In this document: one piece after another, positions 4,157-60,950 of the stretch | Position numbering within the stretch: position 1 is the stretch's first letter | Layout: each line of letters starts with the position of its first letter | Assembly (NCBI GenBank): GCA_964544585.1 | Contig: CAZJBV010000004.1 | Span: forward strand, 5,169-69,168 | Source: an uncultured Gammaproteobacteria bacterium | Lineage (GTDB): Bacteria; Patescibacteriota; Microgenomatia; 2-02-FULL-39-11 | Reading direction: 5' to 3' | Length of the DNA stretch: 64,000 nt | Program-made: the position numbers and the translations under genes | The notes under the pieces: model-generated | What the model saw: the letters and a program-made list of their open reading frames with translations, nothing else | What the model was told of the DNA's origin: nothing | Database searches by the model: none

Positions 4157-5427
4157 ACAAAATATTTAAACTTTATAATCGTTTTTACTATTTGACAAAT
4201 CCCATATCCCGCAAATAAAAAAACAATGGGATACACTGGCAATGTATAACGCTCTGCCCCCACCGAGAAAAGATGTATAAATGTTGTATAGATAAGAAGA
4301 TACATACACAAAAAATAAAACCGATAATCTACCTCTTTTTTACTTTTATATAGACCAAATCCGCAAAGAAAAATAATTATTAAATTTGACCAATATATAA
4401 ATGATAAAAGGAGTTTATTTTCTAACGTGTAATAAGGAAAAATTTGATATTTCTCCCAGATATATTTCATCTTCCGAAGGCGACTCAACAAAAACTCTCC
4501 AGGATCATTTTTGACCTTTTCCATACTTAGCTTTAAATATTTTGTATCCAAATCATACTTAGTCACATCTCTCCATTTATTTCCATACTCAAAATACATA
4601 TTGTTTAACTCAGGCGGATAAGCGGTAGTCTTTAAAAGATCGTCCGTGTAAAGTGAGGCATAAAATTCCTTTACTGCTAAATTATCAATTGTCACCAAAG
4701 ATATTTTTCTGTACACTTTAAAATTTGCGATTAGGCTGTACAAAAAGGGAATTATAAAAAGCAAACCCCCAAAAAAATATATAAAAAACTTTTTATTAGT
4801 CCTCTTTTTTCTCATAATTAAAAATGCAATAAAAATAATCGAAAGTGAAAAATACAAAAAACCTGGCCTCACTTGAGGAAGAAAACCTGCAAATAAAGCC
4901 AATAAAAAAAGACTCCTTTTTTCCTCAAGTTTAATAAATAATAAATAAAGAGTTACCAATAAAGTCAGAAAAAAAATGGCATAAATCTCGCTCAAACGTA
5001 CTCCCACATATGCCGCCGTAAAAGGATTGAATAAATATAATATAAACCCTAACCAAGCCACCAATTTATTCCCAAAAATGCGCCAGCCAATATAAAATAT
5101 CATCAGTGATACCAGGGCATCCAAAACTGCTTGTAAATAAATCCAAACAATCGTATTTTCTGTTCCAAAAATTGAATAGATCATTGCAAGAACTATCGGA
5201 AAACCATATTGCCTATATGGATGAGCTGCAATAAAAAACGGAGAATCTTTTATTTTAACGGCTAACTCATGATATTCTGTCTGATCCAATATGAAAGACT
5301 GGGGGGAAAAATACGCTAGTAAAAGGCGAAAGATTATGCCTCCCAAAAATAAAAAAACTATTAAAAATATAGAAAATATTTGCCTTGGCATAAGATCAAT
5401 CATAGAAATCCACCACACTCTTTGCAA
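4153..5427 (-). CDS. ArnT/PMT_2-like GT-C glycosyltransferase (first-loop motif ILDQTEYHELA)
   Basis: 424 aa polytopic membrane protein. It is a paralog of 33959..35215, 35212..36444 and the N-terminus of 10853..12487. Confidence 0.5.
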   Translation of the reverse strand: MQRVWWISMIDLMPRQIFSIFLIVFLFLGGIIFRLLLAYFSPQSFILDQTEYHELAVKIKDSPFFIAAHPYRQYGFPIVLAMIYSIFGTENTIVWIYLQAVLDALVSLMIFYIGWRIFGNKLVAWLGFILYLFNPFTAAYVGVRLSEIYAIFFLTLLVTLYLLFIKLEEKRSLFLLALFAGFLPQVRPGFLYFSLSIIFIAFLIMRKKRTNKKFFIYFFGGLLFIIPFLYSLIANFKVYRKISLVTIDNLAVKEFYASLYTDDLLKTTAYPPELNNMYFEYGNKWRDVTKYDLDTKYLKLSMEKVKNDPGEFLLSRLRKMKYIWEKYQIFPYYTLENKLLLSFIYWSNLIIIFLCGFGLYKSKKEVDYRFYFLCMYLLIYTTFIHLFSVGAERYTLPVYPIVFLFAGYGICQIVKTIIKFKYFV

Positions 5428-6508
5428 TCTGTAAAACTTCTTTATTTGTCATTTCAGGATAAAGAGGCAAAGAAAGTATCTCTTGCGATGCCCTTTCTGC
5501 CTCGGGAAAATCTCCCTTTTTGTATCTCAAATTTTTAAACGATGACACTAAGTGTATCGGCACTGGATAATGTATCGCCGTCTGTATCCCCTTCCTATCC
5601 AGATACTCTTTCAACTCATCTCTCTTTTTTGTCCTAATCACAAACAAATGATAAACATGCTTAGAATAAGAAGATTCAAAAGGCAATATTATTTGATATT
5701 TGATATTTGATATTTGATATTTGATATTCTCTGATATCTCTCTTCTCCTCTCAATCCATCTATCCAAATATTTCAATTTCACCAAGAGAAATGCCGCCTG
5801 TAATTCGTCAAGCCTTGAATTCTTCCCCACCAAAACACTTTTATATCTTTCTTTCTCACCATACATTCTCAAAAGTCTTAGTTTTTCATAAAGCCTTGTA
5901 TCATTCGTCACCACCATTCCCCCGTCACCAAATGCACCCAAATTCTTGGTCGGATAAAATGAGAAACAACCTATATCTCCAAAAGATCCAACTTTTTTTC
6001 CATTTATTTCAGCCCCTACTGCTTGAGCACAATCTTCCACCACAGGAATACTCCATTTTCTCGCTATCGCTAAAATTTGGTTCATCTCGGCAGGATTTCC
6101 ATACAAATGTACCGGTATTATTGCTTTTGTTTTTTTATTTATCGCCCTTTCCAATTTCGTTGGATCAATATTGTAAGTTTTTCGATCTATATCCACCAAA
6201 ACTAGTTTTGCACCAGTTGCTGCTAAACCAAATGCACTAGGATAACTATTTGCAGGCATTATGACTTCGTCTCCTTCCCCTATCCCTAATGCTAAAAGTG
6301 ATAGAGTCAAAGCATCCGTCCCCGACGCCACTCCCAACGCGTATTTGACTCCTATGTATTCGGCAAATTTCTTCTCAAACTCTTCTACTTTTTCACCGAG
6401 AATAAATAGTCCTTGCCGCAAAACATCCTGAAAAATCTCTATATATTCTCTCTCAAGTTCTTTATTTTGCCTTTTTAAATCAAAAACAGGAATCATATTG
6501 ACTATCAT
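5396..6508 (-). CDS. DegT/DnrJ/EryC1/StrS family PLP-dependent sugar aminotransferase
   Basis: Family-typical blocks GVASGTDALTLSL, AIIPVHLYGNPAEM, VVEDCAQAVGAE, GDIGCFSFYPTKNLGAFGDGGMVVTND. The true start may be the internal MIPVFDLK (6496). Confidence 0.85.
   Translation of the reverse strand: MIVNMIPVFDLKRQNKELEREYIEIFQDVLRQGLFILGEKVEEFEKKFAEYIGVKYALGVASGTDALTLSLLALGIGEGDEVIMPANSYPSAFGLAATGAKLVLVDIDRKTYNIDPTKLERAINKKTKAIIPVHLYGNPAEMNQILAIARKWSIPVVEDCAQAVGAEINGKKVGSFGDIGCFSFYPTKNLGAFGDGGMVVTNDTRLYEKLRLLRMYGEKERYKSVLVGKNSRLDELQAAFLLVKLKYLDRWIERRREISENIKYQISNIKYQIILPFESSYSKHVYHLFVIRTKKRDELKEYLDRKGIQTAIHYPVPIHLVSSFKNLRYKKGDFPEAERASQEILSLPLYPEMTNKEVLQIAKSVVDFYD
5691..5735. repeat. Heptanucleotide tandem repeat (ATTTGAT)x5.4 plus variant unit, inside the DegT CDS
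   Basis: Read directly: atttgat x5 + att + ctctgat. It translates as a repeated ISNIKYQ peptide and the current copy number keeps the frame. Confidence 0.85.
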
Positions 6509-6637
6509 TTTTCCTTATATTACAACATTAGAACTAATATCGAAATCCACTTTCGTCACGAAAGACTTCAGGTTCGAGAGAAACTGGTGAGAATCGACGA
6601 CGGAGTATATGGCAATATACTTCTAGGAGATTCGAAC

Positions 6638-6657
6638 CCTGCCTGCCGGCAGGCAGG
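6638..6657. repeat. GC-rich 20-bp perfect palindrome CCTGCCTGCCGGCAGGCAGG (copy 1), abutting T-arm-like GATTCGAACC
   Basis: Perfect palindrome in a 197-bp divergent intergenic region. The identical 20-mer recurs at 59803-59822. Confidence 0.85.
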
Positions 6658-6705
6658 CAGTTGCAGCCGAATCCTGAAGGCTTGCAGTAGAAAGGGGATT
6701 TTGAT

Positions 6706-8007
6706 ATGAGTTCTTATACGTTGAAAAACTACCTCAAATTATCTCCTTTTATCATACTCATGGCTGCCTTGGCCATCCGTATATTATTTTTTCTCTCTAC
6801 TCCAAACTACACCCTCCATCCAGATACTTTTGGTTATTTTGAAGTTGGAGATGATATCTTAAAATTTCCCGCAAAATATTTCTTCAATGAAAGGCGGACA
6901 CCTGTCTATCCACTATTTGTCAGTATTATTAAAGTAGCTACCCCAGACGCGATTTACTTCTGGATAATATTTATCCAAACCCTTTTAGGATTACTCACTC
7001 TTTACATCCTCTATAAAATCATGTCCCTTTTAAATACATCCCCAAAGTTTAAATTATTTTTACTCCTTTTCTTCTCTCTAAATCCCCTCATCTTTGCCTG
7101 GGAACAAGTACTCCTCACAGAATCACTTTCTATATTTTTACTTACGCTATCTTCCTACATTCTACTTCTTTTTATAAAAAAGCCAGATTTTTATCATCTC
7201 CTTCTTCTTTCTTTATCCTCAATTTTTCTATTTCTATTAAAACCCATATTTTCCTATTTTCCCATCATATCGGCCATATCAATTCTTCTTTATAAACCGA
7301 CAAAACAGAAATTAGTTTCGGGAATAATTTTTCTTACTATTTTCATTTTAGTTTTGATTACATATATCAATCACAATAAAACATATTTTTCTTATTCTGG
7401 CATAAATAGGACTACTGATATTAATCTTCTCGGTATGATAATCAAATTTAATTTAGATACCGAAAAAGCTAAAAATATCGGCGGTTTCCATCAAAAACTT
7501 ACGGAATATAAAAAAATAAATATTGAGCCTCAACCATACCGTTTCCTTGAATATTATGATCCGCAAATTTATGCCAAAAATGAAATATTCCAAAATCTGC
7601 AACAATTCAATAAGGAGGTGCTTCTTAGTAATCTACCTATTTATATCAAAAAATCTCTTTTACAATATTCGGAAGCCACTCTTGAGATAAGTCATACCAT
7701 TCCCAAGCCAAAAGATGAATCGATTTTCCGTCCGTTTTTCATCATTTTGGAAAATATCGCCGCAAAAACACTTTTTATAAACTTCCTCACATTTCCATTA
7801 TTAATCTTTTCCCTCTACCGCTTTTTAAAAATAAAATCTCTAAAAAACTTTGCCATATTTACAATCGGTGTAATATGCACCCTCCATATCCTCACTTCCA
7901 TCTTTTTTTCCTACAATGAATTTGGTCGCCTCATTACTCCCACCCTTCCCCTTCTCTATCTTTTTAATTTTTATTCACTCCAATATCTTTTTTTATTTCT
8001 TTTATAA
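6706..8007 (+). CDS. Polytopic membrane protein, putative GT-C-type glycosyltransferase
   Basis: 433 aa, >10 hydrophobic helices, HPDTFGYFEVGDD acidic first-loop motif. Confidence 0.4.
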   Translation: MSSYTLKNYLKLSPFIILMAALAIRILFFLSTPNYTLHPDTFGYFEVGDDILKFPAKYFFNERRTPVYPLFVSIIKVATPDAIYFWIIFIQTLLGLLTLYILYKIMSLLNTSPKFKLFLLLFFSLNPLIFAWEQVLLTESLSIFLLTLSSYILLLFIKKPDFYHLLLLSLSSIFLFLLKPIFSYFPIISAISILLYKPTKQKLVSGIIFLTIFILVLITYINHNKTYFSYSGINRTTDINLLGMIIKFNLDTEKAKNIGGFHQKLTEYKKINIEPQPYRFLEYYDPQIYAKNEIFQNLQQFNKEVLLSNLPIYIKKSLLQYSEATLEISHTIPKPKDESIFRPFFIILENIAAKTLFINFLTFPLLIFSLYRFLKIKSLKNFAIFTIGVICTLHILTSIFFSYNEFGRLITPTLPLLYLFNFYSLQYLFLFLL

Positions 8008-28707: not shown

Positions 28708-28968
28708 ATGAATTATTTACAAAGCACTCTAAGCCGCAAATATCAGACCGTTATCCCTTCTCAGATTCGAAGACTCCTCCAGTTAAAAGCAGGAGATACT
28801 ATCATCTGGCAAATTACTCAATATAAAAATCAAACCCAAGCCATTGCTTCTCCCAAACCCCAAAAATGGACAGAGTATACACGCGGGCTCGGAAAAAGTA
28901 TCTGGAAAGATGTCAATATAGAAGACTATATAAGGAAGCTACGTTCCGAATGGCAAAACCGCGACTAA
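28708..28968 (+). CDS. AbrB/MazE(SpoVT_AbrB)-fold antitoxin
   Basis: KYQTVIPSQIRRLLQLKAGDTI swapped-hairpin motif; 86 aa. It overlaps the downstream PIN gene. Confidence 0.5.
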   Translation: MNYLQSTLSRKYQTVIPSQIRRLLQLKAGDTIIWQITQYKNQTQAIASPKPQKWTEYTRGLGKSIWKDVNIEDYIRKLRSEWQNRD

Positions 28969-29414
28969 ACAAATTCCAAAAGGATCTTCTCACGTACGGG
29001 AATATTGGTGTTGACTCGATGATTTTCATCTATCATTTTGCCGATCATCCTCAATACGCACCGCTTACAAATATTTTTTTTGATGCTCTCGAAAATAATA
29101 AAATAACGGCGGTTACATCAATAATATCCCTTATCGAAATACTTATAAAACCGGAAAGAGAGAAGGAATTAGCCTTAGTAGAAGAGTATGAAAAAATACT
29201 CTATAATTTCCCAAATCTGGAAATACTACCAATAGATGAATCTGTAGCCAGGCTTGGAGCAAAACTGCGAGGACACTATTCCTTTCTCAAGACTCCAGAC
29301 GCCATTCAGTTAAGCGTCGCACTTCTGAAAGACTGCAAAGCATTTCTCACCAATGATGAAAAACTCAAGAGAATAAAAGAAATTCATACCATTGTCCTCC
29401 AAAACTACCTCTAA
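28950..29414 (+). CDS. PIN-domain (VapC-like) toxin
   Basis: IGVDSMIFIY (N-terminal catalytic Asp), LTNDEKL (C-terminal D). The start is trimmed to Met29 of the track ORF. Confidence 0.55.
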   Translation: MAKPRLNKFQKDLLTYGNIGVDSMIFIYHFADHPQYAPLTNIFFDALENNKITAVTSIISLIEILIKPEREKELALVEEYEKILYNFPNLEILPIDESVARLGAKLRGHYSFLKTPDAIQLSVALLKDCKAFLTNDEKLKRIKEIHTIVLQNYL

Positions 29415-59486: not shown

Positions 59487-59570
59487 AGTCAAATAAAGTG
59501 GAACGTAACAAATTGCCAAAGCAATTTGAACGTTCCCACCACGTTTAAATTTGCGTCAGCAAATTTATTA
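59487..59570 (-). terminator. Two consecutive strong hairpins in the tRNA-Ala(-) 3' trailer followed by a U-rich tract
   Basis: First hairpin CCACCACGT-TT-AAATTTGC / GCAAATTT-ATT-ACGTGGTGG. Second hairpin GGAACGTAACAAATTGC / GCAATTTGAACGTTCC. The first overlaps the encoded CCA end. Confidence 0.45.
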
Positions 59571-59571
59571 C

Positions 59572-59648
59572 GTGGTGGACCCGAGGGGACTCGAACCCCT
59601 TGCCTTCTGACTGCCAGCCAGATGTTCAACCAGCTAAACTTCGGGCCC
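59572..59648 (-). tRNA. tRNA-Ala (anticodon GGC), CCA encoded
   Basis: Manual fold gives acceptor GGGCCCG with a G3:U70 Ala identity pair, anticodon loop CUGGCAG and T-arm AGGGG-UUCGAGU-CCCCU. There is one extra nucleotide at the T-stem/acceptor junction (77 nt), so tRNAscan confirmation is needed. Confidence 0.55.
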
Positions 59649-59662
59649 GGGTGATCTAACAT

Positions 59663-59690
59663 TGTATCAAATCAATCTCAGATGTAAAAT
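59663..59690 (+). promoter_or_regulatory. Sigma70-like promoter TTGTAT-N17-TAAAAT for tRNA-Ala(+)
   Basis: Read directly. The -10 element ends 8 nt before the tRNA 5' end. Confidence 0.4.
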
Positions 59691-59698
59691 ACCAAAAA

Positions 59699-59769
59699 GG
59701 GCCTATGGTTCAACGGTAGAATACTGCTTTCGCATTGCAGAGATCCGAGTTCGATTCTCGGTAGGTCCA
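59699..59769 (+). tRNA. tRNA-Ala (anticodon CGC), no encoded CCA
   Basis: Acceptor GGGCCUA/UAGGUCC with G3:U70, D-arm GUUC-AACGGUA-GAAU, anticodon loop UUCGCAU, T-arm CCGAG-UUCGAUU-CUCGG. Confidence 0.6.
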
Positions 59770-59792
59770 CAGATCTTCTCACAGGTACTCCA

Positions 59793-59841
59793 ATCCGAGT
59801 TCCCTGCCTGCCGGCAGGCAGGGATTCTCGGTAGGTCCACA
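59793..59841 (+). other. Duplicated 3' fragment of tRNA-Ala(CGC) (ATCCGAGTTC ... GATTCTCGGTAGGTCCACA) interrupted in the T-loop by the 20-bp palindrome CCTGCCTGCCGGCAGGCAGG (copy 2, 59803-59822)
   Basis: Direct comparison with 59742-59770. The two flanks reproduce the tRNA from the variable region to the 3' end, and the palindrome sits exactly where the T-loop would be. Confidence 0.7.
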
Positions 59842-59843
59842 AA

Positions 59844-60950
59844 TTATCTCCCAAGATACCCCAGAGGATTTACAATTACTCCATTTATCCTCACCTCAAA
59901 ATGGATGTGGATTCCCGATGATCTTCCCGTCGCACCCATCTTACCGATTGCCTGACCTCTTAATACACCATTTCCACTTGAAACATACAATGCTTGCATA
60001 TGGGCATATAGTGTCTGCATTCCGTCTCCATGGTCAACAATTATGTGACATCCATAACCATAGCGAATACATCCCGAGTACACAACCGTCCCGCTTTCGG
60101 CAACAGCAATATCAGGAGCAGCATTATTCGCAATGTCAACTGCCATATGATATGAAACTGGATATTGCGTAATTTGTCCTGATGCCGGCCATAAAAGCCT
60201 TCCTCCCCCACCAGCAATAATCTTTGGTACCCGTTGAGCAATATAAACGGGGGCTGCCTCAGGAGCTACACCGTCAGGCACGATAAGGGTCTGCCCTACA
60301 GCTAAAGAAAATGTATCCAGGTCCGCAAAATCATTTGCCGGAAAATTGACTATTTTCTGTGCATCAGTTTTATAATATTTGGCTACAGAATAAATCGTAT
60401 CTCCCGGCTTTACCCTATGGACAATTCCCGTCACGGGCGGAACCCGAAGAATCTGACCAGTCACCAAACGATCAGATTTTAAGTTATTCGCCCACTTGAT
60501 CGTATCCACAGACACTCCAAATTTTTCCGCAATTGTTCCCAAGACATCTCCACCCTCAACTTCATATTCAAGAATTTCAAACCGTGGCTTATCAGATATT
60601 TGTGTTGCCGTTGACAGTTCCTGCGGTTGGTTGGAGACAAGATAAGATGAATCTGTTAAAGAAAGCGTCTCTTCCCGATTCACCGTAGGATAGTATTCTG
60701 CTACAACCGGCGCTCCCACAATTGCCCCCGTCACCAGAAAAAAAAGAGATAGATTAAGAAAGTGTTTTGAGTAGCGCCCCCTCTTGGCAATAAGAATATC
60801 AACCAAAACATCTTTAAAACGCTCAAAATGGGTAAAAAGAATAAGTACACGCTTTCTAAAGTAATTGTAAAGAAATCTTATCCAATCGGCCACATCATTT
60901 TTGAAAATGAAAAACCACTCAAAAGTGTCTTTCGAAATACTTATTTTCAT
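59844..60950 (-). CDS. M23-family metallopeptidase with two LysM domains and N-terminal membrane anchor
   Basis: LysM-like GDVLGTIAEKFGVSVDTIKWAN and GDTIYSVAKYY. M23 motifs HMAVDIA and GIHIHFEV. Confidence 0.8.
   Translation of the reverse strand: MKISISKDTFEWFFIFKNDVADWIRFLYNYFRKRVLILFTHFERFKDVLVDILIAKRGRYSKHFLNLSLFFLVTGAIVGAPVVAEYYPTVNREETLSLTDSSYLVSNQPQELSTATQISDKPRFEILEYEVEGGDVLGTIAEKFGVSVDTIKWANNLKSDRLVTGQILRVPPVTGIVHRVKPGDTIYSVAKYYKTDAQKIVNFPANDFADLDTFSLAVGQTLIVPDGVAPEAAPVYIAQRVPKIIAGGGGRLLWPASGQITQYPVSYHMAVDIANNAAPDIAVAESGTVVYSGCIRYGYGCHIIVDHGDGMQTLYAHMQALYVSSGNGVLRGQAIGKMGATGRSSGIHIHFEVRINGVIVNPLGYLGR

Follow-up and report, generated by a model that had tools for sequence, protein, structure and literature searches.

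Two exact copies of a 20-bp perfect palindrome, CCTGCCTGCCGGCAGGCAGG (hereafter PAL), are present in the 64,000-nucleotide stretch of contig CAZJBV010000004.1 analyzed here (hereafter the window), and both are embedded in DNA derived from transfer RNA (tRNA) genes. Sequence comparisons suggest that PAL is probably the cis-acting hallmark of a widespread family of tiny mobile cassettes, which lodge in tRNA genes and encode a putative GIY-YIG nuclease, and that the window copies are relics of such cassettes devoid of the nuclease open reading frame (ORF). The relic at the second copy (site 2) probably represents a mirror layout of the cassette with its cargo reduced to 21 nt, and the first (site 1) is best read as an older, more eroded relic of a tRNA T arm with no intact tRNA beside it. 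The specific role of PAL within the cassette is proposed with less confidence.

The repetition of a GC-rich perfect palindrome 53 kb apart, pointed out in an earlier note on this DNA, was reproduced exactly (Table 1). A search of the window allowing up to three mismatches returned, beyond the two copies, only a shifted self-match, and 100 shuffles of the window yielded no match (chance expectation, 0). The two copies are the longest perfect palindromes of the window and the sole GC-rich ones among its long palindromes; at site 2 the palindrome reaches 24 bp (TCCCTG...CAGGGA). PAL has no stop codon in any frame, and its usual reading within genes is LPAGRQ. The pair is not coincidental and represents an insertion-type palindrome tied to tRNA-derived DNA.

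Copy 2 lies within a duplicated tRNA 3' end, as the earlier note had recognized. An intact tRNA-Ala(CGC), detected by ARAGORN and scored at 62 bits by the Rfam tRNA model, is followed after a 21-nt spacer (X) by a partial copy identical to its final segment at 29/29 bases. PAL exactly splits TTC and GA of this copy (C56|G57), and thus represents a clean addition of 20 bp with no target duplication. Spacer X aligns with the DNA from position 59842 onward with 15 matches, a score equalled by 0.6% of random 26-mers of the window (p about 0.006), indicating that the duplicated unit extends past the tRNA and has diverged there. An identical tRNA part joined to a diverged duplicated flank is what import from a diverged relative would leave. 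Furthermore, spacer X occupies the slot in which related loci (L189, L193, L194, L206) hold a downstream flank and a GIY-YIG ORF.

Collections of genomes and viral sequences were scanned for PAL, and the resulting counts are lower bounds, not random samples. Exact PAL was present in at least 120 stretches of a species-representative genome set covering many phyla, including Patescibacteria, Bacteroidota, Omnitrophota, Planctomycetota, Bdellovibrionota, gamma- and deltaproteobacterial metagenome-assembled genomes (MAGs), Nitrospirota-type bacteria and others, and in at least 35 viral stretches, with three to six copies on some viral contigs. Isolates were also represented (Winogradskyella echinorum KCTC 22026, Flagellimonas yonaguniensis 334s03, Longitalea luteola and Flavivirga sp.), as was a 4.4-Mb record titled complete chromosome. 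This wider search thereby yielded many further copies; the flanks were unrelated among loci, and the contexts comprised coding regions, tRNA fragments and tandem repeats. About 8% of 165-169 PAL copies were in tRNA-derived DNA compared with 0.3% of controls, and the flanking base pair was A...T in 33/125 copies. No description of PAL was found in literature searched with its sequence and sub-strings, a scope that left many subscription papers outside and by which novelty is unproven.

Without prior assumption, the ORFs located up to 2 kb from PAL at 155 loci were grouped by clustering. The family that recurred most, and the sole recurrent protein family, was a stand-alone GIY-YIG nuclease of about 80 aa (UPF0213/SLX1-like) whose domain matched Pfam PF01541 at E = 1e-14 to 1e-17; no integrase, recombinase or transposase family recurred within the same distance. 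The nearest solved structures were those of UPF0213 proteins (1ZG2, E = 4e-12; 1YWL, 8e-12), followed by SLX1 (3e-4) and I-TevI. Nine of the at least 120 genome loci carried the GIY-YIG ORF, in six of the nine no more than 150 bp from PAL. A common layout comprised a 5' piece of a tRNA containing PAL, the ORF of about 80 aa and an intact tRNA (L106, L037, L118, L152). When the adjoining intact tRNA was taken as the empty site, PAL was a clean addition of 20 bp without target duplication in L106, L037 and L118; at L030 the net addition was also 20 bp, with one junction base changed.

In the reverse direction, 80 metagenome loci were retrieved by protein alone, with a query seeded from PAL-adjacent ORFs. 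PAL (up to four edits) was located within 200 nt of the ORF in 67/80 loci (59 upstream, 16 downstream; exact in 38/80), a proportion valid for this subfamily and not for all GIY-YIG proteins, since the query was built from PAL-adjacent ORFs; the rest of the same 80 loci contained six PAL matches in 220 kb. An intact tRNA began no more than 140 nt after the ORF, usually within 40 nt, in 55 of the 80 loci (Leu 27, Arg 14, Lys 4, Asn 4, Gly 3, and Gln, Thr and Met), and in these 55 loci the tRNA 5' part was also duplicated ahead of the ORF, at a distance of 30-100 nt from its ATG. Consecutive tRNA positions were recovered on both sides of the insert at 38 loci, the insert measuring 20 nt in 33 and 19 nt in five. 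It followed raw tRNA coordinates 14-16 in 13 loci, 21-23 in 19, 32 in three and other positions in three, the main sites being the D-loop region and the point where the anticodon loop begins. The base preceding PAL was A in 39 of 46 distinct junctions, read as the conserved A14 and A21.

PAL held a fixed architectural position in 49/55 cassettes. Among the 32 cassettes with exact upstream PAL, protein identity had a median of 53% and a minimum of 36%, so that PAL, exact while the proteins are about 53% identical, is far better conserved than the gene that it accompanies. At several loci other GC-rich hairpins replaced or joined PAL (L175, L187, L190, L209, L176, L213). In the upstream fragments of L176 and L213, relatives of the form TCCGCC-N4-GGCGGACAGGC were inserted just past the start of the D arm (roughly positions 12-13), and the same cassette fragments had PAL at a later position, where the D loop ends.

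Duplications in the family mostly concerned tRNA 5' parts and often reached into flanking DNA. A mirror layout, consisting of intact tRNA, downstream flank, ORF and a 3' partial copy with PAL or a variant of it, was found at L189, L193, L194, L199, L186, L206 and L233, and it is this layout that site 2 resembles. At L206 a PAL-like hairpin is located at GAGTTC|GAATCTCG, the same T-loop position as in site 2, and L029 shares this position. At L189, the flank following the intact tRNA is nearly a copy of the one that follows the partial tRNA, as with X and its counterpart X' in the window. PAL variants at L186 and L233 stand directly before TTCGAATC, close to the arrangement at site 1, where PAL precedes GTTCGAATC. 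ORF-less relics also occurred elsewhere (L030, L015, L039), L029 contained an array of decayed tRNA-Thr 3' pieces of which the last holds PAL in its T loop, and whole cassettes formed tandem arrays at L223, L224 and L183; such arrays lend indirect support to the putative homing by the nuclease. No GIY-YIG match was obtained in any window ORF or in six-frame translations of either PAL site, and the window copies were classed as ORF-less relics, not active members, because no GIY-YIG ORF lies between tRNA and partial copy. Both copies have the exact 20-mer of the PAL-tagged family. Site 2 also has the clean insert of 19-20 bp at a cloverleaf loop of a partial tRNA and the adjoining intact tRNA of the same sequence; the latter is missing at site 1.

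At site 1, PAL is situated in an intergenic region of 197 bp (6509-6705) between a DegT gene and an ORF of 433 aa, in agreement with the earlier description of a divergent intergenic region. The T-arm-like GAGATTCGAAC that had been noted beside copy 1 also stands: on the minus strand the DNA after PAL reads GTTCGAATCTCCT, and the tRNA profile matched it at positions 50-64 with 4.8 bits, a score equalled in 3/1132 control windows. A second T-arm half probably belongs to the same tRNA, and a DNA fold that pairs the two halves across PAL had a computed energy of -18.5 kcal/mol (z = -3.4). Here PAL is flanked by T-arm halves only, with nine extra nucleotides, and as a loop insert the site is weaker than site 2. 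The intergenic region contained no intact tRNA, Rfam match, called terminator or ORF remnant. A hidden tRNA gene was rejected, as ARAGORN found none even with PAL deleted; relaxed settings gave just a poor 77-nt 'tRNA-Gly' that used PAL as its anticodon arm, and the T-arm relic alone was accepted. A possible GIY-YIG start after PAL on the minus strand (VYCHILRRR) was likewise discarded when the profile of PAL-linked ORFs gave no signal.

Table 1. Features at and around the two PAL sites (positions in the window; a point marks a feature without strand).
Feature	Position	Strand	Basis or relation
DegT aminotransferase gene	5396-6508	-	left neighbour of site 1
tRNA 3' relic GTTCGAATCTCCTAGAAGTA (T loop, 3' strand of T stem, acceptor-like tail)	6618-6637	-	abuts PAL; tRNA profile
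PAL copy 1	6638-6657	.	exact match, perfect palindrome
Opposite T-arm half, AGGATTCGG	6667-6675	-	9 nt (GCTGCAACT) from PAL; pairs across PAL with 6618-6637 in DNA fold
433-aa ORF, no Pfam match	6706-8007	+	right neighbour of site 1
Intact tRNA-Ala(CGC)	59699-59770	+	ARAGORN and Rfam; final 29 nt (59743-59771) are the repeated segment
Spacer X, 21 nt, GATCTTCTCACAGGTACTCCA	59772-59792	+	between intact tRNA and partial copy
Partial tRNA copy, left part, ATCCGAGTTC (tRNA positions ~47-56)	59793-59802	+	identical to 59743-59752
PAL copy 2	59803-59822	.	exact match; between C56 and G57 of T loop
Partial tRNA copy, right part, GATTCTCGGTAGGTCCACA (positions 57-76)	59823-59841	+	identical to 59753-59771
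Flank X', diverged homologue of spacer X	59842-59863	+	alignment with X

A mechanism can be proposed in which the nuclease would cut a cassette-free tRNA allele at a loop and repair would copy the cassette from an occupied allele, with the conserved tRNA serving as a portable homology arm. The host would retain an intact tRNA because the cassette brings its own copy of the displaced tRNA segment. The displaced native segment would remain alongside as the partial copy with PAL exactly at its break point, a cloverleaf loop that is usually the D loop (after A14 or A21) and sometimes the anticodon arm, variable loop or T loop. We infer which copy is native and which is imported, and PAL would mark the border between them. 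PAL is probably retained by selection, for one or more of three reasons. As a palindrome or hairpin it may be bound or cut by the SLX1-like nuclease; it may stop re-cutting of the partial copy; or it may block recombination between partial copy and intact tRNA, which would delete the cassette. Any insert at this point would split the direct repeat, and recombination on one side of the repeat would give a dead tRNA, both of which would stabilize the cassette. The conservation of the PAL sequence itself points to a specific interaction, most simply with the nuclease. PAL could act there as a symmetric dimer site, or as a hairpin or cruciform in view of the relationship to SLX1. PAL may also end up alone at other breaks, giving rise to the many solo copies, including those in frame within genes. 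No local activity is expected in the window, its copies being relics.

A more far-reaching version is put forward tentatively, as a possibility with the balance against it: PAL and the nuclease of about 80 aa may constitute an undescribed structure-guided mobile system that reads DNA shape (the PAL hairpin or cruciform and the extruded loops of tRNA genes) instead of a long sequence, makes breaks in the D-loop region of tRNA genes into which the cassette is copied with PAL at the break, and lets PAL move alone as well. If true, PAL would be the smallest mobile DNA known and common to bacterial phyla and phages.

Several observations weigh against the assignment of PAL to nuclease cassettes and of the window copies to their relics. 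About 90% of the genome matches are solo, with no tRNA or nuclease near. Some copies lie in frame inside genes and a few have flanking direct repeats of 7-8 bp, and these solo, in-gene and direct-repeat copies indicate that PAL also spreads by a route outside the cassette model. The usual homing logic, by which insertion destroys the target, does not hold here, since the presumed target persists in the intact tRNA next to the cassette. The 80-aa cassette protein is without an obvious DNA-binding domain. In the window, relic status is read from the architecture, neither site having a GIY-YIG ORF or detectable remnant; site 1 is without an adjoining intact tRNA, its tRNA score is weak, and the nine nucleotides between its left T-arm half and PAL are unexplained. 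The confinement of the reverse comparison to one subfamily belongs among these points as well.

The strongest rival, which we consider rather unlikely, treats PAL itself as a miniature non-autonomous mobile palindrome of 20 bp, moved in trans or captured at breaks. The window copies would then be independent solo insertions into tRNA-derived DNA, owing to a preference for hairpin loops or for breaks made by the nuclease, and the link with GIY-YIG genes would exist only since the nuclease makes breaks. The predominance of solo copies with unrelated flanks across phyla and viruses agrees with such mobility, as do the copies read in frame as LPAGRQ in real genes (a loop of GatB in L104; ORFs in L013, L043 and L071). 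Direct repeats of at least 7 bp adjoin PAL at 7.3% of sites compared with 0.6% of controls (12-fold; mode 7 bp), and 14% of sites place PAL within a pre-existing hairpin loop, compared with 6% of controls (2.4-fold). PAL is also nested within PAL at L018, L042 and L201, and mutated, decaying variants neighbour exact copies. A second cross-phylum palindrome with unrelated flanks, TCCGCCAGCTGGCGGA, occurs at seven PAL loci (L011, L015, L016, L032, L040, L108, L110) and behaves alike. However, no transposase was found, nor any element with PAL halves at its borders, nor a longer parent element ending in such halves, and about 80% of copies are without target duplication. Direct repeats of 7 or 8 bp, a length-defined duplication of the kind seen with miniature inverted-repeat transposable elements (MITEs), abut 6/165 copies. 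The fixed position of PAL in the cassettes and its exactness next to proteins of about 53% identity argue for a selected cassette part, not a passenger, and both window copies are in tRNA-derived DNA, like the PALs of cassettes. The two explanations are partly compatible and differ in whether the window copies came with a cassette.

Further features of PAL copies were recorded. PAL was often situated at the unit boundary of short tandem arrays with a period of 7 or 8 bp (L101, L082, L121, L144, L129), the units in unrelated genomes being AATTACG, TCTAAAA, GTGAGAG and others. A viral contig (IMGVR_UViG_3300025106_000007; L154, 3913-4142) carried at least ten tandem 21-bp units of the PAL variant CCATGCCTACCGGCAGGCAGG up to the contig end, and further variants inside genes in the same 2.5 kb. 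At L211 (1190-1230) an 18-nt insert interrupts PAL and is bordered on each side by a copy of the central CG. This single case would suit cleavage of PAL at its center with a 2-nt stagger and was left as an anecdote.

A host function of PAL as a hairpin or protein-binding site (terminator, tRNA processing signal, operator or parS-like site) was judged very unlikely. The computed hairpin of PAL and T stem at site 2 is very stable (-17 kcal/mol, z = -5.7), both window sites are intergenic, and the sequence is conserved across phyla, all of which would suit such a role. Yet neither site has a T-run after PAL or a called terminator; gathering and permissive Rfam thresholds returned for the window only two tRNAs and chance-level matches, and PAL occurs in unrelated contexts and behaves as an insertion relative to intact copies. 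An asymmetric PAL variant found in both orientations relative to the ORF gives no indication of a strand-specific RNA role. Selection on the hairpin through compensatory changes was also considered; the apparent covariations proved to be this one asymmetric variant in both orientations, template-switch mutation is also possible, and no claim is made.

Less probable still is that a tyrosine or serine recombinase uses PAL as its attachment (att) or core site, the tRNA 3' duplication being attL/attR, or that PAL is a repetitive extragenic palindrome (REP) or IS200/IS605-type hairpin served by a Y1 transposase; integrase attachment and IS200/IS605-like hairpin targets had been suggested in the earlier note. 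Duplication of a tRNA 3' end is a classic sign of integrase-mediated integration, and a palindrome could hold two inverted binding sites. Nevertheless, no recombinase, transposase or integrase domain was detected in a scan covering 50 of the 51 window ORFs with 150 aa or more, and none recurs at the 155 PAL loci. The tRNA-end copies are separated by just 21 nt, leaving no island between them, and the duplications in the family, mostly of 5' parts and often into flanks, are unlike a fixed recombinase core. PAL is perfect and identical across phyla, unlike species-specific REPs, and no Y1 (HUH) gene was seen among the scanned window ORFs or the recurrent neighbours. An island of 53 kb bracketed by the two PALs was likewise rejected, as the tRNA relics are of different sequence and inverted and are thus not att repeats of one island. 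What stands of the earlier proposal is a small mobile palindromic element associated with tRNA-like sequence, recurring with unrelated flanks in many phyla and viruses, without the integrase or IS200/IS605 agents. Since many copies and an enzyme were found, the situation in which that proposal was to be abandoned (two copies only, unrelated flanks, no enzyme) does not obtain.

An RNA-level mini-intron or an assembly or sequencing artefact is barely credible: PAL does interrupt otherwise full-length tRNAs at L085 and L145 and most matches are in MAGs, but ORFs of low-GC genomes read through PAL in frame, deleting the 20 nt restores no ORFs and the window copies sit in non-functional fragments, while an artefact is excluded by the occurrence in isolates and long contigs, the mutated copies beside exact ones and the preserved frame of in-gene copies.

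Comparison with known systems places the cassettes nearest to free-standing homing-type genes. SegB, of the Seg family of phage T4, is reported to act in a tRNA gene region (PMC13096335). The phage free-standing GIY-YIG genes and the proposed cassettes share a small selfish gene for a nuclease, located between conserved genes or inside them, a target in a tRNA region and a presumed mode of spread in which a double-strand break is repaired on the occupied allele and flanks are co-converted. The cassettes differ in that the protein is only a catalytic module of about 80 aa, that the hosts are cellular genomes of many phyla, and that part of the tRNA is duplicated so that the gene stays intact. 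We know of no invariant 20-bp palindrome at the break point of Seg or Mob elements.

Branched and stem-loop DNA is cut by SLX1, a repair enzyme that works with its partner SLX4 and is not mobile. Together with UPF0213 (YhbQ-like) proteins it is the closest solved relative of the cassette protein, and stem-loop cutting would fit a hairpin-forming palindrome and the loops of tRNA genes, the activity of the cassette protein being putative. The GC clusters of yeast mitochondria and the PstI palindromes of Neurospora, which flank mitochondrial tRNA genes, are short GC-rich palindromes of AT-rich genomes that nest into each other. PAL resembles them in being scattered and GC-rich, near or within tRNA and other genes, and in its nesting; the organelle palindromes differ in sequence and length, are restricted to one organelle lineage and have no established link with a nuclease, whereas PAL is identical across phyla and phages. 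Rickettsia palindromic elements (RPEs) and MITEs are likewise non-coding palindromic inserts that can be in frame in protein genes or lie in RNA genes. However, they measure about 50-150 bp or longer and are lineage-specific, and MITEs have a defined target duplication and a parent transposon, in contrast to the 20 bp of PAL and its usual lack of duplication. Integrative elements that target tRNA genes also leave a partial copy beside an intact tRNA by means of a carried replacement segment, but the cassettes have no integrase, a cargo of about 0.3 kb, duplications mostly of 5' parts and repeats split by PAL. The combination of a nuclease-only protein, a self-restoring tRNA duplication and an invariant 20-bp palindrome across phyla and phages differs from all the systems compared here, and the PAL-tagged family appears to be new as a variant of homing-endonuclease cassettes.

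Through one 20-mer, a large population of tRNA-invading cassettes and their relics, apparently not yet described, becomes searchable in Patescibacteria, Bacteroidota, Omnitrophota, Planctomycetota, proteobacterial lineages and phages. The family would account for many stray tRNA fragments, odd GC-rich hairpins and LPAGRQ protein inserts in low-GC genomes, which can mislead tRNA and gene annotation. A non-coding 20-mer that remains unchanged next to a partner protein whose identity has fallen to about 50% is unusual and speaks for a precise molecular interaction. Should the nuclease read DNA shape, it would be a very small candidate enzyme for structure-directed cutting. In the window, the two sites would record past invasions of tRNA genes and would not be regulatory elements of the neighbouring glycan-synthesis genes.

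Related ORFs were also observed in other settings. A sister GIY-YIG group outside tRNA genes (L204, L214 and L231, with ORFs at about 2501, 878 and 2122) is placed between inverted repeats CCCGTTAGAGAAA...TTTCTCTAACGGG, that is, in the loop of another palindromic repeat. At L152 (about 830-1000), and downstream of the ORF at L185 and L195, the tRNA continues past the anticodon region with a GC-rich insert, possibly a group I intron, whose length is about 140 nt or more; these tRNAs escape detection by ARAGORN. In a Rhizobium phage with a related GIY-YIG gene, no annotated tRNA adjoins the gene, PAL itself not having been searched for there. Several further assignments were made by inspection of the sequence: at up to 1.5 kb from PAL, ORFs for four-helix bundles of the '23S rRNA intervening sequence protein' type (L050, L102, L108, L125, L147); ORFs resembling retron or group-II-type reverse transcriptases near PAL (L010, L038, L125); a related GIY-YIG ORF inside an apparent 23S rRNA gene, apparently in an rRNA insertion (L093, 4700-5150); and PAL, translated, together with a GIY-YIG domain in frame in the linker of an HsdS-like ORF, a type I restriction S subunit (L060, 3861-4200).

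The window is bacterial, with about 35% G+C; its genes include those for Rho and an M23 peptidase and an extended series for sugar-modifying enzymes and glycosyltransferases of the PMT_2/YfhO type. Its best protein relatives are from Gottesmanbacteria-type Patescibacteria, none of them near; the DegT protein is 100% identical to a single database entry, the next homologue being at 71%. Nearly all of the DNA between the PAL copies (about 500-59000) belongs to one large surface-glycan cluster, which comprises three DegT aminotransferases, five epimerase/dehydratases, GT2 and GT4 enzymes and many PMT_2/YfhO-like membrane proteins, and which includes no mobile-element gene among the ORFs scanned and one PIN-domain ORF (28866-29414). 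GC skew is negative across all 2-kb bins of the window (-0.12 to -0.34) despite genes on both strands, and G+C climbs from about 0.32-0.38 to 0.40-0.43 past 54 kb. Near site 2, two divergent tRNA-Ala genes, GGC (-) and CGC (+), lie 50 nt apart at 59573-59770, and the minus-strand tRNA-Ala(GGC) is followed by an AT-rich hairpin whose stem measures 9 bp (59546-59567).

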